Shown here: positions 8,065 through 64,000 of the stretch, one piece after another
How the letters are laid out: each line of letters opens with the position of its first letter
Position numbering within the stretch: the stretch's first letter is position 1
NCBI GenBank assembly: GCA_944363715.1
Contig: CALVUX010000008.1
Span: 2,928-66,927, forward strand
Length of the DNA stretch: 64,000 nucleotides
Reading direction: 5' to 3'
DNA from: an uncultured Bacilli bacterium
GTDB taxonomy: Bacteria > Bacillota_I > Bacilli_A > RF39 > UBA660
Translations under genes and position numbers: made by a program
Notes under the pieces: model-generated
What the model saw: the letters and a program-made list of their open reading frames with translations, nothing else
What the model was told of the DNA's origin: nothing
Database searches by the model: none

Positions 8065-8098
8065 TTTTTAATATATATGAAAGTATAGAGGGTTATGC

Positions 8099-11952: not shown

Positions 11953-12378
11953 TTGATGGAAAAAAGAGTTAGTGTTAGAGGTATTATTATTGATGGTGAT
12001 AAAGTATATGCTATATTTAGAAGAAGAGTTAATGATGATGGAATTTTTAAAGAATATTATGTTATACCTGGTGGAGGATTAGAAAAAGGGGAAACTTTAG
12101 AAGAAACATTAATACGAGAATTGAAGGAAGAACTATCGATAGATGTTGATATTATTGGTTATTTAGGATTTGATGAGGATGATACTTCTATTGCTCATTT
12201 TTTTAAATGTAAAATACTTAATGGTATTCCTATTCTTGGAGGAGAAGAATTAGAAAGATGTTCTAGTGATAATTATTATGAAATTAGAAAAGTAAATATT
12301 TGTGACTTATATAGTATTGATATACTGGCTAAAGATATGATAATGAAAGCTTATAATGATGAGTTTATAGAATTATAA
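11953..12378 (+). CDS. NUDIX hydrolase
   Basis: Nudix box GGGLEKGETLEETLIRELKEELSI. Confidence 0.75.
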   Translation: MMEKRVSVRGIIIDGDKVYAIFRRRVNDDGIFKEYYVIPGGGLEKGETLEETLIRELKEELSIDVDIIGYLGFDEDDTSIAHFFKCKILNGIPILGGEELERCSSDNYYEIRKVNICDLYSIDILAKDMIMKAYNDEFIEL

Positions 12379-12427
12379 TAGTAGCAAAAAAGGGCTTTTT
12401 ACATATTTTAATGTAGAGGTGAATATT

Positions 12428-14062
12428 ATGAATGAGCGAATAGTGACAGGTGTTGTTGTAGATGCTGGACATGGAGGTGCTGATCCTGGTGCTGTTTCTT
12501 CTGGTTTACAAGAGAAAGATTTTACATTAGATGCATCTTTATATATGTATGAAAGGTTACAACAGTTAGGGATACCTGCTGTTTTAACAAGAGATTCTGA
12601 TGAAAACTTAAGTAGAACGGAAAGACTTAGACGGGCTAATGAGGCTTTTGGAGGTAGTAGTAATGCTATACTTATATCTAATCATATAAATGCTGGAGGT
12701 GGAGAAGGAGCAGAGGTTATTTATGCTTTACGTAATAATTCTACTTTAGCCCAGTCTATCTTAGAAGAGATAGGTAGTGAAGGACAAATTATGCGTAAGT
12801 ATTATCAAAGAAGACTTCCTGAAGATCCATCTAAAGATTATTATTACATCATTAGAGAGACTGCTCCTATGCAATCTTTACTTGTTGAATATGGTTTTAT
12901 TGATAATGCTAATGATAGGGTTAAGTTGCAAAATGATTTATTAAATTATGTAGAAGCAGTTGTTAGAGCGATTGCAGGGTATGCTGGTGTTCCTTATACT
13001 CCTCCCGAAGGAAGTGGTACTAATTTTTATACTGTAGTTAAAGGTGATAGTCTATGGACTATAGCTCGTAAATTCGGTGTTACAGTACAACAGTTAAGAG
13101 ATGCTAATAATTTAACAAGTGATACTCTTACTGTTGGTCAACTTCTTAGAATTCCTACTAGTGGTGGTACTGATAATGGAACTGGAGGAAATGTTACTTA
13201 TACTGTGCAAAGAGGAGATAGTCTTTGGAGTATTGCAAGTCGTTATGGAATAAGTGTTAATGATTTAAGACGTGCAAATAATCTTACAAGTGATACTCTT
13301 AGTATAGGACAAGTTTTAATTATTCCTGGTGTTGGTAATGGTAATGATGATAATGATAATATAACAGGGCCTTCTACTACTTATACAGTACAAAGAGGAG
13401 ATAGTTTATGGAGTATTGCTAACCGTTTTGGAGTTACTGTACAACAATTAAGAGATGCTAATAACTTAACAAGTGATACTTTAAGTATAGGGCAAGTCTT
13501 AACTATACCTGGTGTTAGTGGAGAAGATGATGGTGAGAGTGATAATGATGGTGCAGTGTTCTATTACACAGTTGAACGAGGTGATAGTCTTTGGAGTATA
13601 GCTCGTAAATTTGGTATTACTGTACAAGAGATAAGAGATGCTAATGATTTAGTTAGTGATACTTTAAGTGTAGGACAATCTTTAATAATACCTGGTCTTA
13701 GTGCAGGCGATGATTTAGAAGATGATAATAATAATGAAACTAATCCTTCTACTTATACAGTTCAATCAGGTGACAGTTTATGGAGTATTGCTAATAAATT
13801 TGGTGTTACTGTCAATGATTTAAAGAATGCTAATGGATTAACATCTAATCTTCTTTCTATAGGACAAGTATTAATTATTCCTAGTTCTAGTACTAATAAT
13901 CCAACTAATCCTAGTTATACAACATACACAGTACAAAGAGGAGATAGTCTTTGGAGTATAGCTAATAACTTTGGTGTTACTGTTGATGCTATTAAGACGT
14001 TAAACAATTTGACATCTAATTTACTTTCTGTTGGTCAAGTATTACAAATACCTAATAATTGA
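12428..14062 (+). CDS. N-acetylmuramoyl-L-alanine amidase (Amidase_3) with six C-terminal LysM repeats
   Basis: VVVDAGHGGADPGAVS amidase_3 N-terminus. Six LysM units of the form YTVQRGDSLWSIA...VGQVL.IP. Confidence 0.85.
   Translation: MNERIVTGVVVDAGHGGADPGAVSSGLQEKDFTLDASLYMYERLQQLGIPAVLTRDSDENLSRTERLRRANEAFGGSSNAILISNHINAGGGEGAEVIYALRNNSTLAQSILEEIGSEGQIMRKYYQRRLPEDPSKDYYYIIRETAPMQSLLVEYGFIDNANDRVKLQNDLLNYVEAVVRAIAGYAGVPYTPPEGSGTNFYTVVKGDSLWTIARKFGVTVQQLRDANNLTSDTLTVGQLLRIPTSGGTDNGTGGNVTYTVQRGDSLWSIASRYGISVNDLRRANNLTSDTLSIGQVLIIPGVGNGNDDNDNITGPSTTYTVQRGDSLWSIANRFGVTVQQLRDANNLTSDTLSIGQVLTIPGVSGEDDGESDNDGAVFYYTVERGDSLWSIARKFGITVQEIRDANDLVSDTLSVGQSLIIPGLSAGDDLEDDNNNETNPSTYTVQSGDSLWSIANKFGVTVNDLKNANGLTSNLLSIGQVLIIPSSSTNNPTNPSYTTYTVQRGDSLWSIANNFGVTVDAIKTLNNLTSNLLSVGQVLQIPNN
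13020..14050 (+). repeat. Intragenic tandem LysM-encoding DNA repeats (~6 units)
   Basis: Repeated nucleotide blocks, e.g. caaagaggagatagtctttggagtat... . Local GC is higher than the surroundings. Confidence 0.7.
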
Positions 14063-14159
14063 TGTAAAAATCAGTAAAAACCATTGATTTAGAAAGGCTT
14101 TCATGCTATCCTTAATATGTAAGCAAGATAAATGCTTAATTATATAGGAGGTTTTATAA

Positions 14160-14432
14160 ATGAAAAAAGTAGAATTAGTAGAAGCTGTTGCAGAAAAAGC
14201 TGGATTAACTAAAGCTGATGCAACTCGTGCTATTGATGCATTTTGCGAAACTGTTACTGAAACATTAGCTAAAGGAGATAAAATCCCACTAGTTGGATTT
14301 GGTACATTTAGTGTTTCTAAAAGAGCTGCTCGTGAAGGACGTAATCCTAGAACTGGTGCAACTGTTCAAATCGCAGCAAGAAACGCTGTTTCATTTAAAG
14401 CAGGATCTGCTCTTAAAGATGCAGTAAACTAA
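14160..14432 (+). CDS. hup: DNA-binding protein HU
   Basis: Full-length match to the HU family (GFGTFSVSKRAAREGRNPRTG). A strong terminator follows. Confidence 0.9.
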   Translation: MKKVELVEAVAEKAGLTKADATRAIDAFCETVTETLAKGDKIPLVGFGTFSVSKRAAREGRNPRTGATVQIAARNAVSFKAGSALKDAVN

Positions 14433-14799: not shown

Positions 14800-15939
14800 A
14801 TGTTAGAAACTGCTTTAAAAGTTTTAAATATAATAGAAGATAATTCTTATGAAGCATATATTGTAGGGGGATTTGTTCGGGATTATGTAATGGGTATTAA
14901 ATCTAATGATGTTGATATTACTACTAATGCTAGGCCTAAAGATTTAATTAAAATATTTCCTAATGCTAATATAGATAATGAGGTTTATGGTAGTGTTACT
15001 GTTTATTTAAATAATATTAGATTTGAAATAACTACTTATAGAGACGATGGTAATTATTTAGATAATAGGCATCCTGATACTATTAACTATGTTAATGATT
15101 TAAAGACTGATTTAAAAAGAAGAGATTTTACTATAAATACTATTTGTATGGGTAAAGCTGGTAATATAGTTGATTTACTTAGTTGTAGAAGTGATATAGA
15201 TAATAAAATAATTAAGACTGTTATTAATCCATTAGAGTCTTTTAAAATAGATTGTCTTAGAATATTAAGAGCGATTAGATTTGCAACTACACTTGATTTT
15301 GAACTTGCTAAAGAGGTAAAAGAAGCGATTATACAGTCTAGATATTTACTTAAGGATTTATCTATTAATAGAAAAAAAGAAGAGTTAGATAAGATATTTA
15401 GTAGTCCTAATATAGAAAAGGGAATTATGTTAATAAAAGAGTTAGGATTAATAGATGTGTTATTTTTAGAAAATATTAATAAAGTAATACCATGTAGTCA
15501 AGTAATTGGTATATGGACTATGTTAGAAGTAGATGATATTTATCCTTTTACTAGAAATGAGTTAAATTTAATGAAAGATATAAGAAATGCTATTAAAAAT
15601 AATCCTTTAGCATATACTACTCTTTATTACTATGATTTATATCCATGTATAGTAGCAGGAGAGATTATAGGTATTTCTAAAAAAGAGATTATGGATAACT
15701 ATAATTCTATGCCTATTCATAAGAGAGGTGATATAGTAGTTGATAGTTATGATTTAATTGATTACTTAAATATAGAAGATGGTCCTATTATGAGTAAATT
15801 ATGGAAGGAGTTAGAACTTAATATATTAAATTTAGAAGTCAGTAATACTAAAGAAGACCTTTTAAATCTTGCTAAAAAGATATATACTAGTATTAATTTA
15901 GTTAAGGAGGAGTGTAATGAAACAGAAACAACTGGTTAG
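14800..15939 (+). CDS. cca: CCA tRNA nucleotidyltransferase
   Basis: GGFVRDYVMG...NDVDITT and RRDFTINT motifs. The alternative upstream start is at 14755. Confidence 0.8.
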   Translation: MLETALKVLNIIEDNSYEAYIVGGFVRDYVMGIKSNDVDITTNARPKDLIKIFPNANIDNEVYGSVTVYLNNIRFEITTYRDDGNYLDNRHPDTINYVNDLKTDLKRRDFTINTICMGKAGNIVDLLSCRSDIDNKIIKTVINPLESFKIDCLRILRAIRFATTLDFELAKEVKEAIIQSRYLLKDLSINRKKEELDKIFSSPNIEKGIMLIKELGLIDVLFLENINKVIPCSQVIGIWTMLEVDDIYPFTRNELNLMKDIRNAIKNNPLAYTTLYYYDLYPCIVAGEIIGISKKEIMDNYNSMPIHKRGDIVVDSYDLIDYLNIEDGPIMSKLWKELELNILNLEVSNTKEDLLNLAKKIYTSINLVKEECNETETTG

Positions 15940-49761: not shown

Positions 49762-50448
49762 TTAGGAGTTAATCTTAATTGTTTTTTCATATCTTTCAAT
49801 TAATCCTTTTTCTTCCATCTTTTTTAATTCTCTCATTAAATTTGCTCTATCTACAAAGAGATATTCTGCAATTGCTTTATAAGATGTTGTGACTTTAAAA
49901 ATATTATTTTCATTCATTCTTTGTTTTAGGAAAAATAATATCTTTTCTTCAACAGTACGTTTTGATAGTAGTTCAATCTTCTCATTTTGTTGTTTGTTAT
50001 CTTCTATTAATAAATCAAATAATGTTAAAACTATGCTGTTATGAAAAGGACAGTTCTGATTACAGTTTTTTATGATATTATAATAATCTATAAAGATAAC
50101 TTTTGTTTCGCCGTTACTAATTATATATATTTCATCTTCTGTGTTTTGAAAGAAAAGATTAGAGAAAATGTCATTTTCTTTTAAATCTCTCATAATAGTA
50201 GTATTTCCTTCTTTATCAGTTTTTACTATGTTTGCTTTTCCTTCTGTAATAAATCCTATTTTCTTTTTGATAGGAGAATAACTTAATATTAATTCTTTAT
50301 TGTAAAATATTTTACTTTTAATGTTGACACAGCTTGACAAATTTTTTTTGAATTGTAAAAGTCTTGTTTCATCTAAAGTTTTCATGGAAAATAACACCTC
50401 TTTAATTTTTATTTTAACAAATTTTTGTAATTGTTGCAAATGCAACAA
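49762..50448 (-). CDS. Crp/Fnr-family transcriptional regulator
   Basis: cNMP-binding beta-barrel and a C-terminal HTH (TSYKAIAEYLFVDRANLMRELKKMEEKGLI). Divergent from nrdD1. Confidence 0.75.
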   Translation of the reverse strand: MLHLQQLQKFVKIKIKEVLFSMKTLDETRLLQFKKNLSSCVNIKSKIFYNKELILSYSPIKKKIGFITEGKANIVKTDKEGNTTIMRDLKENDIFSNLFFQNTEDEIYIISNGETKVIFIDYYNIIKNCNQNCPFHNSIVLTLFDLLIEDNKQQNEKIELLSKRTVEEKILFFLKQRMNENNIFKVTTSYKAIAEYLFVDRANLMRELKKMEEKGLIERYEKTIKINS

Positions 50449-50499
50449 TAATATTTTTAGTTTGTGAGTTAGAATATTTTTTGTAAGATAGAGAGGTAG

Positions 50500-52638
50500 T
50501 TGATGTACATGAAGGATATTATGATTGTAAAAAGAAATGGTAATTTGGAAAAGTTTGATCCTGAACGAGTTAGGAAAGCAGTTAGAAGTAGTGCTGAACG
50601 TGTTATGGTTGATTTAACTGATGATGCTATGAATAAAATTGTTAATAAAGTAGTGGAGCTTTTAGAAACACAGACAAGTAATCCTACTGTTGAACAAGTA
50701 CATAGTTGTTGTGAAGTAGCACTTGAATCTATTAATCCTTTGGTTGCAAAGAGTTATAGAGAGTATAGAGATTATAAGAAAGATATTGTTCATATATTAG
50801 ATGAAGTCTATAAAAAGAGCCAGGTTATTACTTATATAGGTGATAAAGATTGTGCTAATATGGATAGTGCTTTGGTTACGACGCAGAGATGTTTAATATA
50901 TAATAGTCTTAATAAAGAATTATATAAGAAATTCTTTTTAACTAGTGCTGAAATAGAGGCTTGTAAAGATGGTTATATCTATATTCATGATATGAGTGCA
51001 AGACGTGATACGATGAATTGTTGTTTGTTTGATATTGCTAATGTCTTAAAAGATGGGTTTGAGATGAGTAATATTTGGTATACAGAGCCTAAAACATTAC
51101 AAACAGCTTTTAATGTTATAGGGGATGTTACTATTAATACTACTGCAATGCAGTATGGTGGGTTTACTCTTCCAGAGATTGATACTGTATTAAAGAAATA
51201 TGCTAAGAAAAGTTATGATATGTATTATAAAGAGTATTTAAATATTAAAGGTAAAGATTATGCTTCTGAAGCGGAGGATTATGCTTGGAAGAAGACAGTT
51301 AGAGAATGTGAACAGGGTTATCAGGGATTTGAATATAAACTAAATACTGTTTCATCTAGTAGAGGAGATTATCCTTTTGTTACTCTTACTTTTGGAGTAG
51401 ATAAAGATAAGTTTGCAGTTATGATTACTAAGACTATATTAGATGTACATAGAGAAGGTCAAGGTAAGAAAGGGTTTAAGAGACCTACTGTATTTCCTAA
51501 GTTAGTATTTTTATATGATAAGAAAGTGCATGGTGAAGGGGGAGAGTTAAGAGATAGTTTTCTTACTGCTATTAAATGTAGTGAGAAGACAATGTATCCT
51601 GATTATTTATCATTATCAGGAGAAGGTTATGTTCCAGAAATGTATAAGAAATATAAGAGAATTGTTAGTCCTATGGGGTGTCGTGCATTTCTTTCTCCTT
51701 GGTATGAACGTGGGGGAATGGAACCTGTTGATAAAGATGATAAACCTGTTTTTATTGGAAGGTTTAATATAGGGGCAATATCTTTACATTTACCTATGAT
51801 ACTTGCTAAAGCTCGTGAAGAACAGAAAGACTTTTATGAAGTGCTTGATTATTACTTAGAGATGATTCGTAGGATTCATATTCGTACTTATCGATATCTA
51901 TCTAAACGTAAAGCTTCTACTAATCCTTTAGCTTACTGTCAAGGAGGTTTTTATGGAGGTAATTTGAAGCCAGAAGAGCCTATTGAACCTATTTTGAAAA
52001 GTTCTACAGCATCTTTTGGTATTACGGCTTTAAATGAATTACAAGTTCTATATAATGGTAAGAGTATTGTTGAAGATGGATCTTTTGCTCTTGAAGTTAT
52101 GAAATATATTAATAAGAAGACTACTGAGTTTAAAAAAGAAGATAATATTCTTTATGCTATATATGGAACACCAGCTGAGAGTTTATGTGGTCTTCAAATA
52201 AAACAATTCCGTAAAAAATATGGTATTATTCCTGGAGTTAGTTCCCGTGAATATGTTTCTAACAGCTTTCATTGTGGTGTTTGGGAAGATATTAGTGGTA
52301 TAGAAAAACAAGACTTGGAAGATAGATTTTGGGAACTATTTAAAGGGGGTAGAATACAGTATGTTCGTTATAATTTAAGTTATAATACTAAAGCAATGCT
52401 TACTTATGTAGAAAGAGCGATGGACAAAGGCTTTTATGAAGGTGTTAATCTTTCACTTGCTTACTGTAATAACTGTGGCCATGAAGAATTAGATATGGAT
52501 GTTTGTCCTAAGTGTGGAAGTAGTGATTTAACAAAGATAGATAGAATGAATGGATACCTTTCTTACTCAAGAGTTCATGGTGATACAATGCTTGGTAATG
52601 CAAAGATGGTAGAAATTTCAGAAAGGAAATCTATGTGA
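50500..52638 (+). CDS. nrdD: Anaerobic ribonucleoside-triphosphate reductase (class III), copy 1, with fused glycyl-radical C-terminus
   Basis: ATP-cone N-terminus, C-terminal Zn ribbon CNNCG...CPKCG, then RMNGYLS...NAK. Confidence 0.85.
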   Translation: MMYMKDIMIVKRNGNLEKFDPERVRKAVRSSAERVMVDLTDDAMNKIVNKVVELLETQTSNPTVEQVHSCCEVALESINPLVAKSYREYRDYKKDIVHILDEVYKKSQVITYIGDKDCANMDSALVTTQRCLIYNSLNKELYKKFFLTSAEIEACKDGYIYIHDMSARRDTMNCCLFDIANVLKDGFEMSNIWYTEPKTLQTAFNVIGDVTINTTAMQYGGFTLPEIDTVLKKYAKKSYDMYYKEYLNIKGKDYASEAEDYAWKKTVRECEQGYQGFEYKLNTVSSSRGDYPFVTLTFGVDKDKFAVMITKTILDVHREGQGKKGFKRPTVFPKLVFLYDKKVHGEGGELRDSFLTAIKCSEKTMYPDYLSLSGEGYVPEMYKKYKRIVSPMGCRAFLSPWYERGGMEPVDKDDKPVFIGRFNIGAISLHLPMILAKAREEQKDFYEVLDYYLEMIRRIHIRTYRYLSKRKASTNPLAYCQGGFYGGNLKPEEPIEPILKSSTASFGITALNELQVLYNGKSIVEDGSFALEVMKYINKKTTEFKKEDNILYAIYGTPAESLCGLQIKQFRKKYGIIPGVSSREYVSNSFHCGVWEDISGIEKQDLEDRFWELFKGGRIQYVRYNLSYNTKAMLTYVERAMDKGFYEGVNLSLAYCNNCGHEELDMDVCPKCGSSDLTKIDRMNGYLSYSRVHGDTMLGNAKMVEISERKSM

Positions 52639-52639
52639 T

Positions 52640-52909
52640 ATGTATAATTGTGATAAAGTTAAAGATATTTTAGGGGATAAGGTCATAGTTATCGCTATTG
52701 AAGAACTAGCAGAACTTACTCAACAACTTACAAAAGGGTTACGTGGTAAGATGAATAGAGAAGATTTGTTGGAAGAGTATGCTGATTGTTTAATCGTAAT
52801 GGAATGGATTAAGGAGTATTATGATTTAAGTGATGAAGAGATAAAGAGATGGCTTGATAAGAAGAATGAACGTAATAGGAAGAAAATAGAAGAGGGGGTG
52901 TTTAGGTGA
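52640..52909 (+). CDS. MazG-like nucleotide pyrophosphohydrolase (small)
   Basis: EEL.EL...L...R.....EE.aDcLi motif of the MazG/HisE superfamily. Confidence 0.5.
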   Translation: MYNCDKVKDILGDKVIVIAIEELAELTQQLTKGLRGKMNREDLLEEYADCLIVMEWIKEYYDLSDEEIKRWLDKKNERNRKKIEEGVFR

Positions 52910-53451
52910 GATATCATAATATAACAAAAGCAGATATGCTTAATGGAGAAGGACTTAGAGTTGTTTTGTGGGTATCAGGATGTTCTCATCATTGCCATGC
53001 TTGTCAAAATGCTATGACATGGGATCCTAATGATGGGTTAGTCTTTGATGATTCTGCTAAAAAGGAAATCTTTGATGAGTTAGGAAAAGAATGGTGTAGT
53101 GGTATAACTTTATCAGGAGGAGATCCTTTGTTTTTAGGCAATAGATGTGAAATATCTAAATTAGTTAAAGAGATTAGAGAAAAGTTTAGAGATAAAACTA
53201 TCTGGCTTTATACAGGTTATACATGGGAAGAGTTATTAGAACAAAAAGATAATGATAAAAACTTGGATACTATTTTAAATAATATCGATGTATTACTTGA
53301 TGGGAGATTTGTTTTGAAACTAGCTTCAGAGAAAATACATTATGTTGGTAGTAGTAATCAGTGTATTATTGATGTTCCTAAGAGTTTAAAGAAGAATAAA
53401 AAGGTATTATATATAGATAATAGTAAAATATTAGAAGGAGTAGTAGAGTAA
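52906..53451 (+). CDS. nrdG: Anaerobic RNR activating protein (radical SAM), copy 1
   Basis: CSHHCHAC (CxxxCxxC) and LSGGDPL. Confidence 0.85.
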   Translation: MRYHNITKADMLNGEGLRVVLWVSGCSHHCHACQNAMTWDPNDGLVFDDSAKKEIFDELGKEWCSGITLSGGDPLFLGNRCEISKLVKEIREKFRDKTIWLYTGYTWEELLEQKDNDKNLDTILNNIDVLLDGRFVLKLASEKIHYVGSSNQCIIDVPKSLKKNKKVLYIDNSKILEGVVE

Positions 53452-53879
53452 TGGAAGAAAGATTAAGAGAAGGATTTACATTAATTATGAGTGGAGAATA
53501 TGATAGTATTTCTGGAGGATACTTGAAAAAAGGTAAGGATGGTATGATACCAACTTGCTTAATAGGGAATGAGGTAAAAACTTTAGAGGAATTTCCTTTA
53601 GTATTGGAAACTATAGAAAATAGAAAAATATTGCAATTATATTCATCAGGAAATGATGTAGTTGCTATGATTGGGTCTAGGCATTATGATGGTCCTTATA
53701 ATGAATCAGAGTATTTAGAGGTTAAGAACTTTGCTAAAGATGATAATCTTATTTGTGTTTTAAGTGAATTGAATTCGCAACTATCTAAAAACGAGGAAAA
53801 AGAAGATGCTAAGACTTATAGAAAAGCTTATAAATTATATGGTAGTGATAAATATAAATTAAAGGAGGATAATAAATAA
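53451..53879 (+). CDS. Hypothetical protein (142 aa)
   Basis: ORF, translationally coupled within the operon. Confidence 0.4.
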   Translation: MEERLREGFTLIMSGEYDSISGGYLKKGKDGMIPTCLIGNEVKTLEEFPLVLETIENRKILQLYSSGNDVVAMIGSRHYDGPYNESEYLEVKNFAKDDNLICVLSELNSQLSKNEEKEDAKTYRKAYKLYGSDKYKLKEDNK

Positions 53880-54334
53880 TGAGAAAAAGAGGTTTTGAAG
53901 TAGTAAAGGGGTATGAAGATAAGGGGATTAATTTACCAGTTAGGAAGACAAAATATGCAGCGGCATATGATGTAGAAGCAGCGGAGGATATAGTTATTCC
54001 TAAATATTATCCAGGAATTAAACCAACATTAATTCCTACAGGATTAAAAGCATATTGTATGGAGGATGAGTGTTATCTTTTACTTAATAGAAGTAGTGGC
54101 CCTAAAAAAGGTTTTATACTTGCTAATAGTGTAGGATTAGTTGATCATGACTATTATGGAAATGAATCTAATGATGGACATTTTTACTTTGCATATTTTA
54201 ATTGTAGTGATCATGATATTGAAGTTAAAAAGGGAGATGTTATTGGTCAAGTAATGTTTCAAAAATATTTAATAGTTGATAATGATGAAGCAGAAGGAAT
54301 AAGAACTGGAGGATTTGGCTCTACTGATAAATAA
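53879..54334 (+). CDS. dut: dUTP diphosphatase
   Basis: dUTPase motifs RSSGPKKGFILANSVGLVDHDYYG and C-terminal GGFGSTD. ~150 aa. Confidence 0.75.
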   Translation: MRKRGFEVVKGYEDKGINLPVRKTKYAAAYDVEAAEDIVIPKYYPGIKPTLIPTGLKAYCMEDECYLLLNRSSGPKKGFILANSVGLVDHDYYGNESNDGHFYFAYFNCSDHDIEVKKGDVIGQVMFQKYLIVDNDEAEGIRTGGFGSTDK

Positions 54335-54424
54335 TTTGAATAAATATTTCCTCAAAATGTAAAATGAAATTTGCTTTTTTTGTAAAATAATGATATACTT
54401 ATTTTGTAAAAAAAGGAGGATACT

Positions 54425-55684
54425 ATGAAATATTTACCAAGAATTGTGGATAAAGAAATAGATGAACTTATGGAGATTATGGGTGCTATATTAATTGAAG
54501 GTTGTAAATGGTGTGGTAAGTCTACAACTGGTTTATATCATGCTAAGAGTGTTATTGAATTTCAAAATCCAGATAGAAAGCAAGAGTATGATAATATAAG
54601 AAATACTAAACCATCACTATTTCTAAATGGCGAAAAACCAAGGATGTTTGATGAATGGCAAATGTATCCTGTTGTTTGGGATTCTGTTCGTACAGATGTT
54701 GATCATACTGGATTAAAAGGACAATACATACTTACAGGGTCGGCTAAACCTAGTGAAGGAGAAACAATGCATACTGGAACTGGTAGAATTTCAAGAGTAT
54801 TAATGCGTCCTATGAGTTTATTTGAATCAAAAGAATCGACTGGAGAGGTTTCTTTTGGTGATATACTTGCAGGTAAAGATATATCTGGAGTATCAAAATT
54901 ATCACTTGAAGATATAGCAAGTATTATTGTAAGAGGTGGTTGGCCTGCTTCTATTTCCATTAAAAGTGATGCTAAATATAGAATTGCTAAAGAATATGTT
55001 AAATCATTAATACATGAAGAGGTAAGAAGTGTAGATGGTGTAGAAAGAAATACAGAAAAAATGCAGAATGTTTTAAGAAGTCTTGCTAGAAATATATCAA
55101 CACAAGTTTCTAATTCAACTATAGAAGCTGATATTAAAAAAACTAGTGATGATGATATATCTAGGCCTACGTTAACAGATTATTTAAACACTTTAGAGAA
55201 ATTATTTGTTATTGAAGATGTTAATGCTACTAATTTAAATCTTAGAAGTAAGTATGCATTAAGAACAAAACCTAAAAAATATTTTGTAGATCCTTCTATT
55301 GCAACTGCTATTCTTGATTTGAAACCTATGGATTTAATTAATGACTTAAACACATTTGGTTTTATGTTTGAATCACTTTGCATTAGAGATTTAAAAATAT
55401 ATACAGAAAGTTTAGGTGGAGATGTAACATTTTATCGTGATGAAAGAGGGTTTGAAGTGGATGCAATTCTTAGAATGCCTAGTGGTAAGTGGGGAGCAAT
55501 AGAGATAAAACTTGGAGCAGGTTATATTGATGAGGCTGCTAATATTCTTTTAAAATTTAAGGAACATGTTGATATTAAAAAGTGTGGCGAGCCATCTTTC
55601 TTATTGGTATTAACAGGTACTAATTACTCTTATAAACGTGATGATGGTGTTTATGTAGTGTCTATTGGGACTTTAAAAAACTAG
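54425..55684 (+). CDS. AAA-superfamily ATPase with C-terminal DUF4143 (AAA_14/DUF4143 architecture)
   Basis: Walker A GCKWCGKST and the domain order typical of this widespread family. Confidence 0.7.
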   Translation: MKYLPRIVDKEIDELMEIMGAILIEGCKWCGKSTTGLYHAKSVIEFQNPDRKQEYDNIRNTKPSLFLNGEKPRMFDEWQMYPVVWDSVRTDVDHTGLKGQYILTGSAKPSEGETMHTGTGRISRVLMRPMSLFESKESTGEVSFGDILAGKDISGVSKLSLEDIASIIVRGGWPASISIKSDAKYRIAKEYVKSLIHEEVRSVDGVERNTEKMQNVLRSLARNISTQVSNSTIEADIKKTSDDDISRPTLTDYLNTLEKLFVIEDVNATNLNLRSKYALRTKPKKYFVDPSIATAILDLKPMDLINDLNTFGFMFESLCIRDLKIYTESLGGDVTFYRDERGFEVDAILRMPSGKWGAIEIKLGAGYIDEAANILLKFKEHVDIKKCGEPSFLLVLTGTNYSYKRDDGVYVVSIGTLKN

Positions 55685-55703
55685 TTAATTTTTTTGATAT
55701 TTT

Positions 55704-55750
55704 AAATAATCATTTTTTTAAAAAAAATAAAAAATGATTATTTTTTTGTG
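55704..55750. terminator. Perfect 15-bp palindrome aaataatcatttttt/aaaaaatgattattt plus T-run (bidirectional terminator)
   Basis: 15-bp perfect stem, 10-nt loop, T8 downstream. Confidence 0.65.
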
Positions 55751-55999
55751 CATAGTTATTGAAAAATAAGAAAATTGATGCTGTCAAAATTTATATTTTT
55801 TCAAAAAAATCAAAAATGATTTTTAGAAAAAATATAAAAATGTATATAAATGTAAATTGTCGTAAATCGAACAAATTAAATTTTTTTAGGAAAACTATAT
55901 ATATCAATGCTTTTATAAAAAACGTGATTTTTTTCTTAAAATTTCCTATTGATTTTTGAAAATACAGCTCTTACAATTGACTTAAATAGGAGGTAAAAT

Positions 56000-58330
56000 A
56001 TGACAGGAGTAAATGAATTAAATGAAGAATTAGAAGGTGTTACAGTAATTAAAAGAAATGGTAAAAAAGTAGACTTTGATGGAGCGAAAATAGCTTTAGC
56101 CATAAAAAAAGGTTTTGATAGTGTTGAAGTAGATGATGATGAGAGCGAAAAAGAAAAGAAATATAACTTTTCTGATATTCAAAAAGTATATAGTGCAGTT
56201 TTAAAAAAAATAAAGAAAGATGCAGAAGAAAAAAATAATCGCTTTAAAATTGAAGAGATTCAAGACTATATAGAAACAGAATTATCTAGTAAAGGATATG
56301 AAGATGTATATAAATCATTTTCTGAATATAGAGAAAGAAGAAATCAGTCAAGAGAATCTTTCTTTGGAGATAATAAGACTCATAAGTTCTTAAAATCATT
56401 AGAGAATCTTGGGCTTAAGTCTGCTAATGAAGAAGATGCAAAACGTGAAAATGCTAATATTGATGGAAATAGTCCAATGGGTACGATGTTACAATATGGT
56501 GCGACTGTATCTAAAGAATTTTCTAAAGCATACTTAATGAAAAAAGAATATGCAGAAGCTCATGATAATGGAACAATTCATATTCATGATATGGACTTCT
56601 TAGCAATGGGTACTACTACTTGTTGTCAGATAGATTTAGCAAGACTATTTAAAAATGGTTTTGATACAGGACATGGATATGTTAGACCACCTCAAGATAT
56701 TTCAACTTATGCATCACTTGCTTGTATCGTTATTCAAGCTAATCAAAATGATCAACATGGAGGACAAGCAATACCGGCACTTGATTATTATCTTGCACCA
56801 GGTGTACTTAAAACATTTAAAAAACAGTTTAAACAAACAATTTATGATTTTCTTGATTTAGAAGGATTTATTCCAGGTATTAATATAGATAGAATTGTTA
56901 GAGAAATAGATAAACAAGAATCAATTGAATTTGATATTAAAGAATTTAGTGATTATAAGAAAGGCTCTAGTAGAGTTCATGAAATATTTGAAAAGAGTTA
57001 TCTTAAAGCAATGCAAAAAACTGATAGAGCGACTGAACAAGCTATGGAAGCATTTATTCATAATTTAAATACAATGCATTCTAGAGCAGGTGCACAAGTT
57101 CCATTTTCATCAGTTAACTTTGGAACAGATATAACTCCAGAAGGTAGAATGGTAGTTAAGAATTTCTTACTTTCTTTAGATAGAGGTCTTGGAAAAGGAG
57201 AAACACCAATCTTTCCAGTATCAATATTTAAAGTAAAAGAGGGAGTTAATTATAATAAGGAAGATCCTAACTATGATTTATTTAAACTTGCTTGTAAGGT
57301 ATCTGCTAAAAGACTTTTCCCTAACTTTGCTTTTGTAGATGCTCCATTTAATAAGCAATATTATAAAGAAGGAGACTTTAATACAGAGATTGCTTATATG
57401 GGTTGTAGAACAAGAGTAATAGGGGACATTACTAGTCCAGATAATGAGATAGTAACTGGTCGTGGTAATTTATCTTTTACTACTATTAACTTACCAAGAT
57501 TAGGCATTAAATATGGTATAGCTTTAAAAGAAAGAGATAAGGCAGATATGGATGGGTTCTATAAAGAACTTGAGAGTATCATGGATATGGTTAAAGATCA
57601 ATTACTTGAAAGATTTGAAGTTCAGTGTAGTAAACATAGTTATAACTTCCCATTCTTACTTGGACAGGGTATTTGGACTAATGGCGAGAAGTTAAAACCA
57701 ACTGATAGACTTAGAAAAGTATGGAAACATGGTACTTTATCTACAGGATTTATTGGACTTGCAGAATGTTTAAAAGCTTTAACTGGTAAACATCATGGTG
57801 AAAGTGAAGAAAGTGAAAAGTTAGGTTTAGAAATCATTACATTTATGAGAAAACGTTGTGATGAGTATTCTCGTAAATATAACTTAAACTTTACTTGTCT
57901 TGCTACTCCTGCAGAAGGATTAAGTGGTAGATTTACAGGAATTGACAGAGCGATATATGGAAAGATTAAAGGTGTTACTGATAGAGAATATTATACAAAT
58001 TCATTCCATGTACCAGTTTATTATAATATAAGTATTACTGATAAGATTGAGAAAGAGGCACCTTTCCATGGACTTACTAATGGAGGACATATTTCTTATA
58101 TTGAGTTAGATGGTGATGCTGCTTCTAATGTTGAGGCATTTGAGAAAGTAATTCGCGTTATGAAAGAAGCAGGTATTGGATATGGTGCGATTAACCATCC
58201 AGTTGATAGAGATCCTGTTTGTGGATATGTTGGAGTAATTAATGATGTTTGTCCTAAATGTGGACGTCATGAATTTGAAGGGGTTCCAATGGAAGTAATA
58301 ACTTCATTAGATAGTAATTGTTGTGAATAA
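56000..58330 (+). CDS. nrdD: Anaerobic ribonucleoside-triphosphate reductase (class III), copy 2, large subunit lacking the glycyl-radical tail
   Basis: ATP-cone and NrdD core. It ends just after the Zn ribbon (VCGYVGVINDVCPKCG...SNCCE*). Confidence 0.9.
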   Translation: MTGVNELNEELEGVTVIKRNGKKVDFDGAKIALAIKKGFDSVEVDDDESEKEKKYNFSDIQKVYSAVLKKIKKDAEEKNNRFKIEEIQDYIETELSSKGYEDVYKSFSEYRERRNQSRESFFGDNKTHKFLKSLENLGLKSANEEDAKRENANIDGNSPMGTMLQYGATVSKEFSKAYLMKKEYAEAHDNGTIHIHDMDFLAMGTTTCCQIDLARLFKNGFDTGHGYVRPPQDISTYASLACIVIQANQNDQHGGQAIPALDYYLAPGVLKTFKKQFKQTIYDFLDLEGFIPGINIDRIVREIDKQESIEFDIKEFSDYKKGSSRVHEIFEKSYLKAMQKTDRATEQAMEAFIHNLNTMHSRAGAQVPFSSVNFGTDITPEGRMVVKNFLLSLDRGLGKGETPIFPVSIFKVKEGVNYNKEDPNYDLFKLACKVSAKRLFPNFAFVDAPFNKQYYKEGDFNTEIAYMGCRTRVIGDITSPDNEIVTGRGNLSFTTINLPRLGIKYGIALKERDKADMDGFYKELESIMDMVKDQLLERFEVQCSKHSYNFPFLLGQGIWTNGEKLKPTDRLRKVWKHGTLSTGFIGLAECLKALTGKHHGESEESEKLGLEIITFMRKRCDEYSRKYNLNFTCLATPAEGLSGRFTGIDRAIYGKIKGVTDREYYTNSFHVPVYYNISITDKIEKEAPFHGLTNGGHISYIELDGDAASNVEAFEKVIRVMKEAGIGYGAINHPVDRDPVCGYVGVINDVCPKCGRHEFEGVPMEVITSLDSNCCE

Positions 58331-58356
58331 TAAAAAATAAGAAGGAGGAATTATAT

Positions 58357-58527
58357 ATGAAAAAAATAGTTGGAGAAGGACAAAAATTTGAAAGGATTAG
58401 ACGTATTACAGGTTATTTAGTAGGTGATGTTGATAGATTTAATAATGGTAAACGTGCTGAAGAGGCTGACCGTGTTAAACATAGTGGTTTAAATGATGTT
58501 GTAAAAAATAAAAAAGAAGGTAAGTAG
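58357..58527 (+). CDS. Stand-alone NrdD glycyl-radical domain protein (56 aa)
   Basis: Own SD aaggagg 8 nt upstream of the ATG. RRITGYLVGDVDRFNNGKRAEEADRVKH aligns with the NrdD C-terminal RR(V/I)(C/T)GYL...N.GK.EE...RVKH. Different frame from nrdD2. Confidence 0.65.
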   Translation: MKKIVGEGQKFERIRRITGYLVGDVDRFNNGKRAEEADRVKHSGLNDVVKNKKEGK

Positions 58528-58528
58528 G

Positions 58529-59080
58529 ATGAAAATAAGACTAGCGGCATCATTACAACCTGATTCTATTGTAGATGGAGAAGGGGTAAGAACTGTTATT
58601 TGGACACAAGGGTGTCCTCATGCTTGTCCAGGATGTCAAAATCCAGGAACTCATGACTTTGATGGTGGGGCTTTGTTTGATGTTAGTGAAGTAATAGATG
58701 AGTTAAAGACTATTAAAAATCAAGATGGTATTACCTTATCTGGAGGAGATCCTGTATGTCAAGCAGAAGCTTGCTATGAGATTAGTAAAGCTGCACATGA
58801 GATGGGACTTAACGTATGGTGTTATACAGGATATACTTACGAAACGATGTTTAAAAATCCTAAGATGAAGAAGTTACTAAGTGAAGTAGATGTCTTAGTA
58901 GATGGTAAATTTATCTTAGAAGAGAAAAGTTTAAATATTTATTATAGAGGCTCAAGAAATCAAAGAGTTATAGATGTTCCTAAAAGTCTAAAACAAGAAA
59001 GAGTAGTTCTTATAGATAGATATATGAAAGATAAGAGTTATGAGGAAACTTATAAAAAGCCAGATTATATGTTTATATAG
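58529..59080 (+). CDS. nrdG: Anaerobic RNR activating protein (radical SAM), copy 2
   Basis: CPHACPGC (CxxxCxxC) and LSGGDPV. Confidence 0.85.
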   Translation: MKIRLAASLQPDSIVDGEGVRTVIWTQGCPHACPGCQNPGTHDFDGGALFDVSEVIDELKTIKNQDGITLSGGDPVCQAEACYEISKAAHEMGLNVWCYTGYTYETMFKNPKMKKLLSEVDVLVDGKFILEEKSLNIYYRGSRNQRVIDVPKSLKQERVVLIDRYMKDKSYEETYKKPDYMFI

Positions 59081-61239: not shown

Positions 61240-61294
61240 AAATAGTTGCATAAACTACATAAACTGTGATATATTTTGTTTAGTTTTATTTAAA

Positions 61295-61510
61295 ACAAGT
61301 GCGAAAGACGGGAATAAGGAAATTTTATAGAGAGTTAATGGTTGGTGGGAATTAACAAATGAACTTATTTCGGATCACTTTCAAGTTGTGCTTTAAGGAT
61401 AAGTTAAAGCCGGGTAAAACCGTTATATTAATAAGATAGATAAAATCTATGAACCAAGGTGGTACAGTGTTATTTTTAACGCCCTTGTGATTCATAGATT
61501 TTTTTGTTTA
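61295..61510 (+). promoter_or_regulatory. T-box riboswitch leader of ileS
   Basis: Stem I AGAGA box (atagagagtt), T-box sequence aaccaaGGTGGtACaGtG at 61452..61469, and a terminator aaatctatgaa...ttcatagattttttttg. Confidence 0.6.
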
Positions 61511-61522
61511 GGAGGAGAGATT

Positions 61523-64000
61523 ATGGCATTTAAAGAACTTGAAAAAGGTAAAACTCATGAAGTCGAGATGAATATTTTAAAGACTTGGGAGAAGATGGAT
61601 ATCTTAAAACAATGTATTGATAATAGAGAAGGTAAGGAAAACTTTGTTTTCTATGATGGACCTGCAACTGCTAACGGTAAACCAGGACTTCATCATATGA
61701 TGGCTAAGTTTTTGAAAGATACTTTCTGTAAATATAAGACTATGCAGGGCTATAGAGTTCTTCGTAAAGTAGGTTGGGATACTCATGGACTTCCTGTAGA
61801 GTTACAAGTAGAAAAGGAACTTGGTTTTAGTAATAAGAAAGATATTGAAGAGTATGGTATAAAAGAGTTTAATCAGAAATGTCGTGAGAGTGTTTGGGAA
61901 AATGAGAAGGCTTTTTCTGATTTAACTAAAGAAATGGGACAGTTTATTGATTTAGAGCATCCTTATGTTACTTATGATAATAACTATATAGAAACAGAAT
62001 GGTGGATTCTTAAAAAATTTTTTGATGAAGGATTATTTTATGAAGGACATAAGATACTTCCATATTGTACTAGATGTGGTACAGGTCTTGCTTCTCATGA
62101 AGTTGCCCAGGGTTATAAAGAAGTAACTGCAAATACAGTTATTGTTCCAATGAAGAAAAAGGATGAAGATGTTTACTTTCTTGTTTGGACTACTACTCCT
62201 TGGACTTTAATTAGTAATGTAGCACTATGTGTTAATCCAAGAGAAGAGTATGTATTAGTAGAATCTCAAGGTAATAAATTTATTGTAGGTAAAAAACTAG
62301 CTTCTAAAGTATTAGGGGATGACTATACAGTATTAGAAGAATATAGTGGTAAGAACTTAGAGTATATGGAATATGAACAGTTAATACCTAGTTTAAAAGT
62401 AGATAAGAAAGCATTTTTCGTTACAGTAGATGACTATGTAACTATGGAAGATGGTACTGGTATTGTTCATATTGCACCTGCTTTTGGACAAGATGATTAT
62501 AATGTAGGAAAGAAATATAATTTACCTGTCTTAAATCCTGTAGGTGAAGATGGTAAATATACTGAAGGATTATGGAAAGGTATGTTTGTTTTCGATGCTG
62601 ATATAGAAGTTATTAAATACTTAAAAGAAAATGGTAAGTTATTTAAGAAAATTAAAATGGCTCATAACTATCCTCATTGTTGGAGATGTGATACACCGCT
62701 TTTATATTATGCTAAACCATCTTATTATTTAGAAGTAACTAAGATAAAAGATGCTGTTGTTAAAAATAATAATGGTGTTAATTGGTATCCTGCTTTTGTT
62801 GGAGAGAAAAGATTTGGTAACTGGTTATTAAATATGAATGACTGGGCTATTTCTCGTAATAGATATTGGGGTACACCACTTCCTCTTTGGAAATGTAGTT
62901 GTGGACATCAGGAGATGATAGGGTCAAGAAAAGAGCTTGTGGAAAAAGCGATTGAAGATATTGATGAGACTATAGAATTACATCGTCCATATGTTGATGA
63001 TATTCATATTAAGTGTCCAGAATGTGGAAAAGAGATGAGTCGTGTTAGTGAAGTAATTGACTGTTGGTTTGATTCTGGTTCTATGCCTTTTGCACAATAT
63101 CATTATCCATTTGAAAATAAAGAGTTATTTGAAGACCAATTTCCTGCAGACTTTATTAGTGAAGGAATTGATCAGACAAGAGGATGGTTCTATACATTAA
63201 TGTTAATTTCTACTTTTGTTACAGGCAAGAGTCCATATAAAAACGTATTAGTTAATGATTTATTACTTGATAAATATGGTAAGAAGATGAGTAAAAGTAA
63301 AGGTAATATCGTTAAACCATTTGATTTAATGAATGAGTTTGGTAGTGATGTTATTAGATTCTATTTACCTTATGTATCTCCTGTATGGACTCCTATTAAG
63401 TTTGATAATGATGGCTTAAAAGAAGTTAATTCTAAGTACTTATCAACTCTTAAGAATGCTTATTCATTCTTTGAGATGTATGCTAATGCTGATAAGATAG
63501 ATCCAAGGGAATATAATGTTCCAGTTAAAGATAGAGATATTACTGATAAGTGGTTACTATCTCGTTTAAATAATACTTTAGATTTAGTTACTAAAGCATA
63601 TGATGAATATGATTTAAATAAAGTAGTTCATTATATTGTAGATTTCTTAAATGATGACTTTTCTAATTGGTATATTAGAAGTAATAGAAAGAGATTCTGG
63701 GATAGTGAACTTACTCTTAGTAAAAAGGCAGTATATCAGACTACTTATGAAGTTTTACTTGCACTTTGTGAGATGGCAGCACCTATTACACCATTTGTTA
63801 CTGAAGAGATTTATCGTAATTTGACTGATGGTAAGAGTGTTCATTTGAGAGATTTCCCTAAAGTAGATGAAACTTTAATATCTAGTGAACTTGAAAATAG
63901 AATGAGTTTAGTTCGTGATATTTGTAGTTTAGGACGTAATGCAAGGGAAGATGTATCTATTAAAGTTAGACAACCTCTTAACTTTATAATAGTTCCTAAA
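61523..64000 (+). CDS. ileS: Isoleucine--tRNA ligase (3' end lies outside the window)
   Basis: WTTTPWTL and KMSKSKGN motifs and an editing domain. Confidence 0.9.
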   Translation, partial: MAFKELEKGKTHEVEMNILKTWEKMDILKQCIDNREGKENFVFYDGPATANGKPGLHHMMAKFLKDTFCKYKTMQGYRVLRKVGWDTHGLPVELQVEKELGFSNKKDIEEYGIKEFNQKCRESVWENEKAFSDLTKEMGQFIDLEHPYVTYDNNYIETEWWILKKFFDEGLFYEGHKILPYCTRCGTGLASHEVAQGYKEVTANTVIVPMKKKDEDVYFLVWTTTPWTLISNVALCVNPREEYVLVESQGNKFIVGKKLASKVLGDDYTVLEEYSGKNLEYMEYEQLIPSLKVDKKAFFVTVDDYVTMEDGTGIVHIAPAFGQDDYNVGKKYNLPVLNPVGEDGKYTEGLWKGMFVFDADIEVIKYLKENGKLFKKIKMAHNYPHCWRCDTPLLYYAKPSYYLEVTKIKDAVVKNNNGVNWYPAFVGEKRFGNWLLNMNDWAISRNRYWGTPLPLWKCSCGHQEMIGSRKELVEKAIEDIDETIELHRPYVDDIHIKCPECGKEMSRVSEVIDCWFDSGSMPFAQYHYPFENKELFEDQFPADFISEGIDQTRGWFYTLMLISTFVTGKSPYKNVLVNDLLLDKYGKKMSKSKGNIVKPFDLMNEFGSDVIRFYLPYVSPVWTPIKFDNDGLKEVNSKYLSTLKNAYSFFEMYANADKIDPREYNVPVKDRDITDKWLLSRLNNTLDLVTKAYDEYDLNKVVHYIVDFLNDDFSNWYIRSNRKRFWDSELTLSKKAVYQTTYEVLLALCEMAAPITPFVTEEIYRNLTDGKSVHLRDFPKVDETLISSELENRMSLVRDICSLGRNAREDVSIKVRQPLNFIIVPK

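Follow-up and report, generated by a model that had tools for sequence, protein, structure and literature searches.

Two class III ribonucleotide reductase operons in a conserved gut Bacilli cluster, one with its glycyl-radical domain encoded by a separate gene

The stretch analysed here (64,000 nucleotides of contig CALVUX010000008.1 from an uncultured Bacilli bacterium, hereafter the window) carries two neighbouring operons for class III ribonucleotide reductases (RNRs). The genes considered lie at positions 49762-59080 in low-GC DNA (~28% GC). Operon 1 consists of nrdD1, nrdG1 and dut, interspersed with accessory genes, and is divergent from a gene for a Crp/Fnr-family regulator. Operon 2 consists of nrdD2, grd and nrdG2, with grd encoding a glycyl-radical domain (GRD) on its own. 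Every gene named in an initial annotation of this DNA was recovered in its place from the open reading frames (ORFs) and from profile searches, including the order nrdD2-grd-nrdG2 with its separate grd ORF. Pfam and NCBIfam profiles were searched against their curated cutoffs and PHROG was used for phage families. Relatives were obtained by a scan with one genome per GTDB species, from which we took the best 80 of 317 stretches encoding a relative of NrdD1 (76-98% identity); 66 gene arrangements were compared, those of 65 of these loci with nrdD2 downstream plus that of the window. The top protein matches come from metagenome-assembled genomes (MAGs) named Candidatus Onthousia, 'uncultured Bacilli/Tenericutes' and 'Mycoplasma sp. 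CAG:877'.

The gene nrdD2 (56000..58330, plus strand) encodes a large subunit of 776 amino acids (aa) that scores 1010.5 bits with NF005497 (cutoff 764) over positions 4-715 of 746. It carries an ATP-cone, the catalytic barrel, a TTCC motif, the YMGCRTR finger loop and a zinc ribbon, DRDPVCGY...CPKCG, after which the chain ends in ...EGVPMEVITSLDSNCCE (also ...CPKCGRHEFEGVPMEVITSLDSNCCE), followed by TAA TAA. The match to PF13597 extends over positions 1-533 of 562, without the glycyl-radical loop. A spacer of 26 nt (58331..58356, plus strand) with a ribosome-binding site of the GGAGG type, AGAAGGAGGA, leads to grd (58357..58527, plus strand), whose product is a stand-alone glycyl-radical domain protein of 56 aa (GEGQKFERIRRITGYLVGDVDRFNNGKRAEEADRVKH) with the loop RRITGYLVG. 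This protein supplies positions 531-562 of PF13597 and matches positions 583-617 of 618 of NF011292, so that the term 'canonical', by which operon 2 had been described, has to be given up. The third gene, nrdG2 (58529..59080, plus strand), encodes a radical S-adenosylmethionine (SAM) activase with the motif CPHACPGC (TIGR02491, 150.9 bits, cutoff 126.1), the proposed activase of the grd product. It lies directly 3' of grd in those related loci that reach that far and in the split operons of Clostridia.

The split is kept in 59 of 59 complete related loci: in each, a spacer of 20-46 nt separates the stop from an ATG that lies behind a GGAGG-type site and opens an ORF of 53-59 aa, and across related species grd occurs in each of the three frames relative to nrdD2. 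A grd match is missing from six loci, all cut by the end of a contig, and one long-read assembly has scattered frameshifts. Orthologues of grd are 68-100% identical across related loci, the median dN/dS (ratio of non-synonymous to synonymous substitution rates) of the grd core is 0.094 over 875 sequence pairs, and the NrdD2 large subunit, in which every catalytic motif is intact, shows 82-98% conservation. As the arrangement recurs in all complete loci, with variable spacers and frames and under such purifying constraint, it is neither a sequencing error nor a fresh pseudogene, and these comparisons allow us to regard the split of NrdD2 with high confidence as real and functional.

It is very improbable that nrdD2 is a decaying pseudogene and the downstream ORF a leftover, with NrdD1 doing all the work. 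A complete NrdD1/NrdG1 system does adjoin, one Cys of the NrdD2 zinc ribbon has gone and some relatives (e.g. L070) contain a degenerate NrdD2-like protein without the catalytic loop, but the persistence of the arrangement in 59 species, with the Shine-Dalgarno (SD) sequence and ATG intact behind variable spacers, the dN/dS of grd, the conserved large subunit and the retention of nrdG2 all speak against decay. Moreover, no nrdD locus other than the split one lies in the 10-20 kb of DNA retrieved on either side of the genes from Butyricicoccus and Agathobaculum that are described below. Joining of the two ORFs in translation, by readthrough or frameshifting, into a single-chain NrdD is hardly credible: nrdD2 and grd are adjacent on the same strand and just 26 nt apart, as such a mechanism would have it, but two consecutive TAA codons are followed by more stops in the spacer, each of the small ORFs starts at an ATG of its own behind a strong SD site, and no conserved slippery or recoding motif is found among the species. 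Variable spacer lengths and frames together with multiple stops thus exclude recoding for practical purposes.

The zinc ribbon is altered wherever the large subunit is split. All split large subunits read DRDPVCGY; the corresponding motif is DRDPCCGY in a fused relative that is 65-69% identical to the split forms of Clostridia, i.e. three Cys (VC...CPKC) face four (CC...CPKC), and NrdD2 has a conserved C-terminal CC besides. More speculatively, this CC pair may be a relocated or inter-subunit zinc ligand that tethers the two chains. In the clade of the window the CC stands in the ending ..NCCE or ..ECCGR (58310-58330 in the window). CC or CxxC also occurs in the C-terminal tail of many stand-alone radical-domain proteins elsewhere, among them many from Clostridia.

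The partner system is of the familiar kind. The gene nrdD1 (50500..52638, plus strand) encodes a single-chain class III RNR of 712 aa (TIGR02487, 539.6 bits, cutoff 326.35; PF13597, PF03477) with an ATP-cone, NCC, the SPMGCRAF finger loop, a zinc ribbon with the complete four Cys (CNNC...CPKC) and the glycyl loop DRMNGYLSYSRVHG. Its tail, ...CNNCGHEELDMDVCPKCGSSDLTKIDRMNGYLSYSRVHGD..., with the radical loop DRMNGYLS on the same chain, had been noted as unusual, and it does differ from other NrdDs in having Asn in place of Cys/Ser/Thr directly before the radical Gly (Gly-1). However, the alignment shows the tail DRMNGYLSYSRVHGDT.L..AKM.EI.ERKSM to be invariant, with the radical Gly and the next Tyr intact, in 81/81 sequences including that of a distant bacterium (MT835545), and the tail, judged by this invariance, is a fixed subfamily signature rather than a sign of decay. 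The activase gene nrdG1 (52906..53451, plus strand; CSHHCHAC; TIGR02491, 177.2 bits, cutoff 126.1) lies directly 3' of the nrdD1 group in 80/80 loci. The conserved third gene, dut (53879..54334, plus strand), encodes a dUTPase (PF00692, 48 bits, cutoff 22); it is present in 66/66 arrangements and in the more distant loci too, except in L068 and in loci cut by a contig end. Since class III RNRs make dUTP directly from UTP, a dUTPase beside the reductases makes sense. The junctions in operon 1 are a 1-nt gap, a 4-nt overlap and two 1-nt overlaps, which bears out the translational coupling proposed at the outset. NrdD1, NrdG1 and Dut make up an ordinary system whose reductase is a single chain as in E. 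coli and T4.

NrdD1 and NrdD2 are only 24% identical, and their closest relatives of solved structure differ: 9d3x and phage T4 1h78 for NrdD1, and for NrdD2 the Prevotella copri NrdD 8p23 (588 bits), with an alignment that stops at the zinc ribbon. Hence 'tandem duplicate', the original description of the two systems, is a misnomer; on the strength of these alignments they are distant paralogues, i.e. non-orthologous systems, each with its own activase (NrdG1 and NrdG2 are ~40% identical). Both NrdDs retain the N-terminal Cys pair and the Met-Gly-Cys finger loop: MNCCL and SPMGCRAF of NrdD1 align to NCCL and SPMGCRSF of T4, TTCCQ and YMGCRTR of NrdD2 to the P. copri NrdD. Met in the finger-loop MGC motif is associated with formate as reductant (PMC9669993).

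The minimal one among the 66 arrangements is nrdD1-nrdG1-dut-nrdD2-grd-nrdG2. A second NrdD-type gene recurs among the relatives inspected and its identity changes, for which reason NrdD1, not NrdD2, is the stable core of the cluster. In L068 (10394-13845), from another species of the order, NrdD1 is paired with another second system, comprising its own Crp-like gene, a fused T4-like NrdD of 722 aa (RRTCGYIG) and an NrdG. In L070 (7591-9552, minus strand) a divergent NrdD2-like protein of 653 aa takes the place of the Crp-like gene, and likewise in L071, L073, L076-L078 and L080. All loci with this protein are more distant relatives (NrdD1 76%); it contains the ATP-cone and positions 3-479 of NRDD, without the finger-loop Cys motif, zinc ribbon and radical loop, and may be a catalytically dead paralogue.

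Small proteins of the grd type are widespread. With the 56-aa sequence as query, 1973 clusters were matched at E<1e-3 among 1.84 billion cluster representatives. The top 150 are all proteins of 54-175 aa with an initial Met, and in 149 the Gly motif is not preceded by a zinc-ribbon-like CxxC. They have in common the core GEGxxFERIRRITGYLVG..RFNxxKRAEExDRVKH, and the leaders and tails around it suggest widely differing base compositions. Proteins of this type are found on hundreds of contigs. A profile search listed only small proteins, some from Butyricicoccus porcorum, Agathobaculum and Candidatus Avidesulfovibrio; these named ORFs are annotated as 'hypothetical protein' or, misleadingly, as 'anaerobic ribonucleoside-triphosphate reductase'. 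The order nrdD-grd-nrdG, with an nrdD product of 763-784 aa, recurs in a Clostridia MAG (L083), in Butyricicoccus porcorum (L092; protein indexed in 720 blocks of the collection), in the isolate Agathobaculum sp. Marseille-P7918 (L094), on a further contig (L096) and on a diderm contig (L098); in an Avidesulfovibrio MAG, nrdG is not adjacent to the pair nrdD-grd. Outside the Bacilli, the layout is thus known from Clostridia and from Desulfovibrionaceae-like contigs. A sample of genomic contexts from 13 lineages yielded seven split operons, four prophages, one stress operon and one intein-bearing element.

The split lineages also contain traces of how the arrangement may have arisen. In the large subunits from Clostridia and the Desulfovibrionaceae-like ones a degenerate copy of the radical domain follows the zinc ribbon (e.g. 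GEGIPLETLRKIKGYIKD... beside GEGVRFERIRRITGYLVG...). When this tail was aligned to the GRD of the same lineage, the score was reached by 0-5 of 2000 shuffles in three lineages and by 42 of 2000 in a fourth. The 21-aa tail of NrdD2 in the window has no such similarity to its own grd product (1302 of 2000 shuffles reach the score); in this lineage only some 20 residues of the remnant are left, too few to be recognised. Given the remnants in the other split lineages, the simplest history would be that the radical-domain segment was duplicated, the cis copy decayed and the downstream copy was kept as a gene. Candidate split GRD genes in phage records were discarded: the matches lie under or directly after annotated nrdD genes, and in two unannotated records a comparison of coordinates by hand placed them in frame with the NrdD match, i.e. 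in fused proteins.

Beyond the split operons, the radical-domain gene also occurs alone. One lone copy (61 aa, at 6001-6186 in L086; L086-L088) lies in an oxidative-stress operon of the order desulfoferrodoxin (dfx)-rubredoxin-GRD-rubredoxin-flavodiiron protein-cytochrome bd subunits I/II (cydAB), which was found on 64 contigs of up to 334 kb. In four unrelated prophages the late or lysis region contains a lone GRD of 54-70 aa with an intact RRITGYLVG; a holin or endolysin gene is its immediate neighbour in three of them, and in three the integrase is no more than a few kb away. In L089 (5001-5213) the surroundings comprise baseplate and tail genes as well as genes for a reverse transcriptase and an integrase. 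In L090 (2808-2972) the gene immediately precedes those for holin and CHAP endolysin, after which comes the integrase; in L091 (5001-5168) it comes directly after a Dp-1-type holin; and L099/L100 have it at 8001-8213, in L099 between a GH108 endolysin and terminase genes. A phage-like contig (L097, 1-5180) encodes NrdD in three ORFs with intein/HINT domains, followed by a 59-aa GRD, a dUTPase and a radical-SAM gene.

Taken jointly, NrdD2 and the grd product cover the full NRDD profile just as a single-chain NrdD does; NrdD1 is a normal member of that family. They have the ATP-cone, ten-stranded barrel, MGC finger loop, zinc ribbon, RxxGY loop and NrdG in common with single-chain class III RNRs (8p23, 1h78, 9d3x, E. 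coli NrdD). All characterised class III enzymes carry the radical loop at the C-terminal end of the catalytic chain itself (PMC11226230, PMC9669993), whereas here it is a separate gene product, and the large subunit lacks one zinc-ribbon Cys and ends in an additional CC. RNRs in two adjacent ORFs that assemble non-covalently are known from other classes, i.e. the class II NrdJa/NrdJb of Pseudomonas aeruginosa and of a Thermus phage, and NrdA-a/NrdA-b of phage Aeh1 (PMC9669993, PMC3045599, PMC3653736). These differ in class, cut point and cause (a homing-endonuclease insertion in Aeh1), and the residue that stores the radical is never on the small piece. Split nrdD genes have been reported in phages, where they are interrupted by introns, inteins or endonucleases (PMC3653736). 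In our full-text literature searches we came across neither a class III RNR whose radical domain is carried by a polypeptide of its own nor an NrdD-type spare part.

The closest functional likeness is to GrcA/YfiD of E. coli and Y06I of phage T4, small stand-alone proteins with a glycyl-radical loop, the phage version of which recalls the prophage copies described above. Oxygen destroys glycyl-radical enzymes by cleaving the chain at the radical glycine, and to our knowledge the only known remedy is GrcA/YfiD, the spare part for pyruvate formate-lyase (PFL). In terms of sequence the grd product is distinct: it has 56 aa rather than about 127, it matches neither PF01228 nor the GrcA models, with NrdD models as the only Pfam or NCBIfam hits at E<=0.01, and neither database holds a model dedicated to proteins of its type. 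GrcA/YfiD is activated by the radical-SAM activase of its parent enzyme and inserts into a large subunit without a usable loop (PMC8683613, PMC13450708). Spare parts are known only for formate lyases (2026 review, PMC13450708), and reviews up to June 2026 describe it as an open question whether glycyl-radical enzymes of other kinds possess them too (PMC13450708, PMC8683613). Operon 2 would thus encode a class III RNR that works like PFL with GrcA, rather than a member of the GrcA family. Unlike PFL, the parent of GrcA, NrdD2 of the window has no loop of its own, and for this reason the grd product would be an obligate subunit there, not a repair part.

Based on these findings we consider it likely that the region is a conserved cluster for anaerobic deoxyribonucleotide supply in low-GC gut Bacilli of the Candidatus Onthousia / 'Mycoplasma sp. 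CAG:877' group, with two non-orthologous class III RNRs, of which NrdD2 is a two-subunit enzyme with a radical protein acting in trans. In such an enzyme the 776-aa subunit would provide the ATP-cone, the barrel, the thiyl-radical loop and the zinc ribbon, and the radical Gly would reside on the separate 56-aa protein. NrdG2 would abstract the hydrogen of this glycine, installing the radical on the small protein. The latter would then dock onto the large subunit in trans, with its Gly loop inside the barrel and beside the Cys of the finger loop. After cleavage by O2 only the 6-kDa piece, not the 89-kDa enzyme, would have to be remade, since oxygen cuts the chain at the radical glycine. The sequences show the gene content, the split, its conservation under purifying selection and its spread to other phyla; trans assembly, activation by NrdG2 and the advantage in oxygen repair we infer by analogy with GrcA/YfiD, and we hold the oxygen-repair rationale with moderate confidence.

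Several points weigh against this reading. Trans assembly and activation of a free peptide are argued solely from the PFL/GrcA precedent, and the oxygen-repair advantage is a hypothesis next to which the split could also be a neutral case of 'genes in pieces' that simply works. The lineage of the window also retains the single-chain NrdD1, so NrdD2 is not demonstrably essential, and NrdD1 or NrdD2 may have entered the lineage by ancient transfer. We regard as unlikely the view that the split is functional yet selectively neutral, with no link to oxygen and with the prophage and stress-operon copies as mere hitch-hikers. Working split RNRs of class I and class II are on record (PMC3045599, PMC9669993, PMC3653736), and the stress-operon context was found just once. 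Yet the cut falls exactly before the oxygen-labile glycine loop and apparently came about when that loop was duplicated and its cis copy decayed, and lone copies beside the lysis cassettes of four unrelated prophages and in the dfx-to-cydAB operon are hard to explain without a function in trans.

For the trans-acting radical protein, the stress-operon and prophage contexts would fit a role in radical supply or oxygen repair, although they are suggestive only. It is possible, even if we would lean slightly the other way, that NrdD-type autonomous glycyl-radical proteins (~55-70 aa) form a large unrecognised family that serves class III RNRs as plug-in radical subunit or spare part in three settings, i.e. 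as partner of a truncated NrdD, as copy in an oxygen-detoxification operon and as phage gene. If true, spare parts would for the first time be known from a glycyl-radical enzyme besides PFL. Perhaps the 165-bp GRD gene in the late or lysis region of temperate phages re-arms the host RNR during infection, which would make it a very small phage auxiliary gene.

With a natural class III RNR whose radical Gly is on a 6-kDa polypeptide, the spare-part question would become directly testable. Many gut anaerobes have kept the split form, among them the cultured genera Butyricicoccus and Agathobaculum, and paralogues of the small protein occur in an oxidative-stress operon and in prophages. The two-piece form would give a minimal substrate for NrdG recognition and for radical transfer in trans, and it offers a candidate explanation of how strict anaerobes may sustain DNA synthesis through transient exposure to oxygen in the gut. 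Moreover, NrdD genes without a radical loop may be mis-scored in annotation, either as complete or as pseudogenes.

The initial annotation had suggested that operon 1, with a gene combination typical of phage auxiliary modules, may be a horizontally acquired second system beside a canonical operon 2, which we now consider improbable. Combinations of nrdD, nrdG, mazG and dut do occur in phages, the MazG-like gene of operon 1 matches a phage family of nucleoside triphosphate pyrophosphohydrolases, is variable between relatives and has the highest GC content at third codon positions (GC3) in the window, the gene for a 142-aa protein (hyp142) and an AAA/DUF4143 gene are likewise variable, and the phage-like contig L097 combines pieces of NrdD with a GRD, a dUTPase and a radical-SAM gene. 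Against this, nrdD1 and nrdG1 occur together in all 80 loci, accompanied by dut save for the exceptions given above, and these three genes are the most conserved part of the cluster, with 76-98% identity for NrdD1 in these species; by the refuting condition named in the initial annotation, conservation among relatives, the reading of a horizontally acquired second system fails. The base composition is host-like, with GC 0.317 and GC3 0.182 for nrdD1, GC 0.309 and GC3 0.131 for nrdD2 and GC3 0.08-0.20 for other genes of the window, so that a check of GC and codon usage singles out only the MazG-like gene (GC3 0.30 over 90 codons). Neither an integrase nor a phage structural or hallmark gene was found near operon 1 among the ORFs scanned at 49.0-61.2 kb.

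In a tblastn comparison with 50,697 phage records, the best match of NrdD1 to an NrdD of genuine phage origin reaches 47% identity, and the values for NrdD2 are 43-51%. A match of 65% to NrdD1 is MT835545.1 (L081), labelled 'UNVERIFIED: Bacteriophage sp.' and derived from a human faecal virome, which encodes an ABC transporter, DapF and MatE at 50% GC and is for this reason taken as a bacterial chromosomal fragment. A match of 53.6% to NrdD2, MT837933.1 (L082), has the same virome label, a fused NrdD and neighbouring ORFs that on inspection are not phage-like. Both records look like bacterial fragments that inflate the apparent similarity to phages, and with genuine matches at or below 47% a phage origin of NrdD1 was rejected. 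If either operon looks imported it is rather operon 2, which has derived characters in common with the split forms of Clostridia and is swapped for other second systems in the more distant relatives fetched. Operon 1, i.e. nrdD1-nrdG1-dut with the divergent crp-like gene, is a conserved host core.

'Phage-like' fits at most the accessory genes, since only this cargo varies between relatives. It occupies three slots (52639, 53451 and 54335-54424 in the window), and in many cases its genes and the adjacent ones are translationally coupled. Behind nrdD1 the slot is mostly empty; it holds the MazG-like gene in 6/66 arrangements and an unrelated 106-aa gene in 9/66. In the window the MazG-like gene (52640..52909, plus strand) encodes a putative NTP pyrophosphohydrolase of 89 aa that has no Pfam or NCBIfam match, and its label is fair because it matches PHROG 2245, 'nucleoside triphosphate pyrophosphohydrolase' (E=2.8e-14), and contains the EExxE/EExxD motifs EELAE and EEYAD. 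The slot after nrdG1 contains hyp142 in 21/66 arrangements, with or without an unassigned gene for a 323-aa protein (10 arrangements). hyp142 itself (53451..53879, plus strand; 142 aa, function unassigned), inserted between nrdG1 and dut, has no match in Pfam, NCBIfam or PHROG, and neither the 106-aa nor the 323-aa gene has an informative one there. The slot after dut holds a thymidine kinase gene in 16 loci and the AAA/DUF4143 gene in 5 loci plus the window, some loci having both; in the window an ATPase with AAA_14 and DUF4143 domains (54425..55684, plus strand; PF13173, PF13635) is thus inserted between the two RNR operons. In the related locus L002 the slot genes lie at 12141-12461, 13415-14386 and 14871-15449.

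Between the operons a terminator-like hairpin follows (55704..55750, plus strand). It had been described as a strong palindromic terminator, and the hairpin, with a perfect stem of 15 bp, and the subsequent U-run are indeed present, but 'strong' is an overstatement, as the stem consists of A-U pairs only (deltaG -11.3 kcal/mol, z -1.96). A scan of 49.7-59.4 kb for sigma-70 promoters and terminators found 49 sites where shuffled sequences of this AT-rich DNA gave 56, and because the scan was not enriched over shuffles, its calls were kept solely where cross-species conservation coincided with them.

The regulator gene (49762..50448, minus strand) is divergent from nrdD1. Its product matches HTH_Crp_2 with 27.4 bits (cutoff 27) and cNMP_binding with 22.8 bits, below the cutoff of 27.5; the true start is likely the ATG at 50385, i.e. 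Met22 of the listed TTG ORF. A divergent orthologue, 56-96% identical, is present in loci L001-L067 and L069. Its only three Cys, Cys40, Cys129 and Cys133 (CNQNCPFH; C129-x3-C133), are invariant in 64/64 orthologues and match neither the E. coli nor the Bacillus arrangement of FNR-type [4Fe-4S] proteins. These arrangements are Cx2Cx5C at the N-terminus plus C122 in E. coli and Cx2Cx4C at the C-terminus in Bacillus.

Upstream of nrdD1 we find a candidate operator (50430..50449, no strand assigned), a perfect inverted repeat ATTGTTGCA-AA-TGCAACAAT. Its core of 16 bp, TGTTG-CAAATG-CAACA (50432-50447), has the 5-6-5 geometry of Crp/Fnr sites; the core GTTGCAAATGCAAC is unchanged in essentially every locus with the divergent regulator, and more distant loci read TGTTG-N6-TCACA at this place. 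The centre of the repeat lies ~42 bp upstream of a TAGAAT-like -10 box read from the sequence, which is the typical position for class II activation by Crp/Fnr proteins. The suggestion that operon 1 is under Fnr-like control is thus supported by the conserved regulator and the invariant palindrome, in the sense of a candidate operator for a Crp/Fnr-family protein, and the signal is possibly redox. As at E. coli nrdDG, where FNR binds, a protein of this family is combined with a palindromic site near -41.5; unlike there, the half-site is TGTTG rather than TTGAT and the regulator has no N-terminal Cys cluster.

The region upstream of nrdD2 has a different signature, so the two systems are probably regulated independently. 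An invariant box of 24 nt, TGTAAATTGTCGTAAATCGAACAA (55851..55874, plus strand), with column conservation above 90% in 27 species, lies upstream of the likely nrdD2 promoter TTGATT-17-TACAAT (55949..55977, plus strand), which was called by consensus scan and has the conserved columns TaTTGatTTTT...TA.AAT in the same number of species. In these 27 species the box and a conserved CT(A/T)TATATATCAA motif stand inside an otherwise unalignable AT-rich spacer. NrdR boxes were considered for this region and rejected: neither the conserved CTATATATATCAA nor the 24-nt box agrees with the palindromic consensus of NrdR.

The sole Rfam match in the entire window is a class B RNase P RNA, so that no riboswitch or other known RNA of that database lies near operon 1 or operon 2; together with the low GC content, this RNA places the DNA in Bacillota. 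At the end of the window, the apparently ORF-free stretch 61240-64000 contains an ordinary ORF of at least 826 aa (MAFKELEKGKTHEVEMNILKTWEK..., 61340-64000, plus strand), which by its look may encode an aminoacyl-tRNA synthetase. It is absent from the list of ORFs because it runs past the window end.

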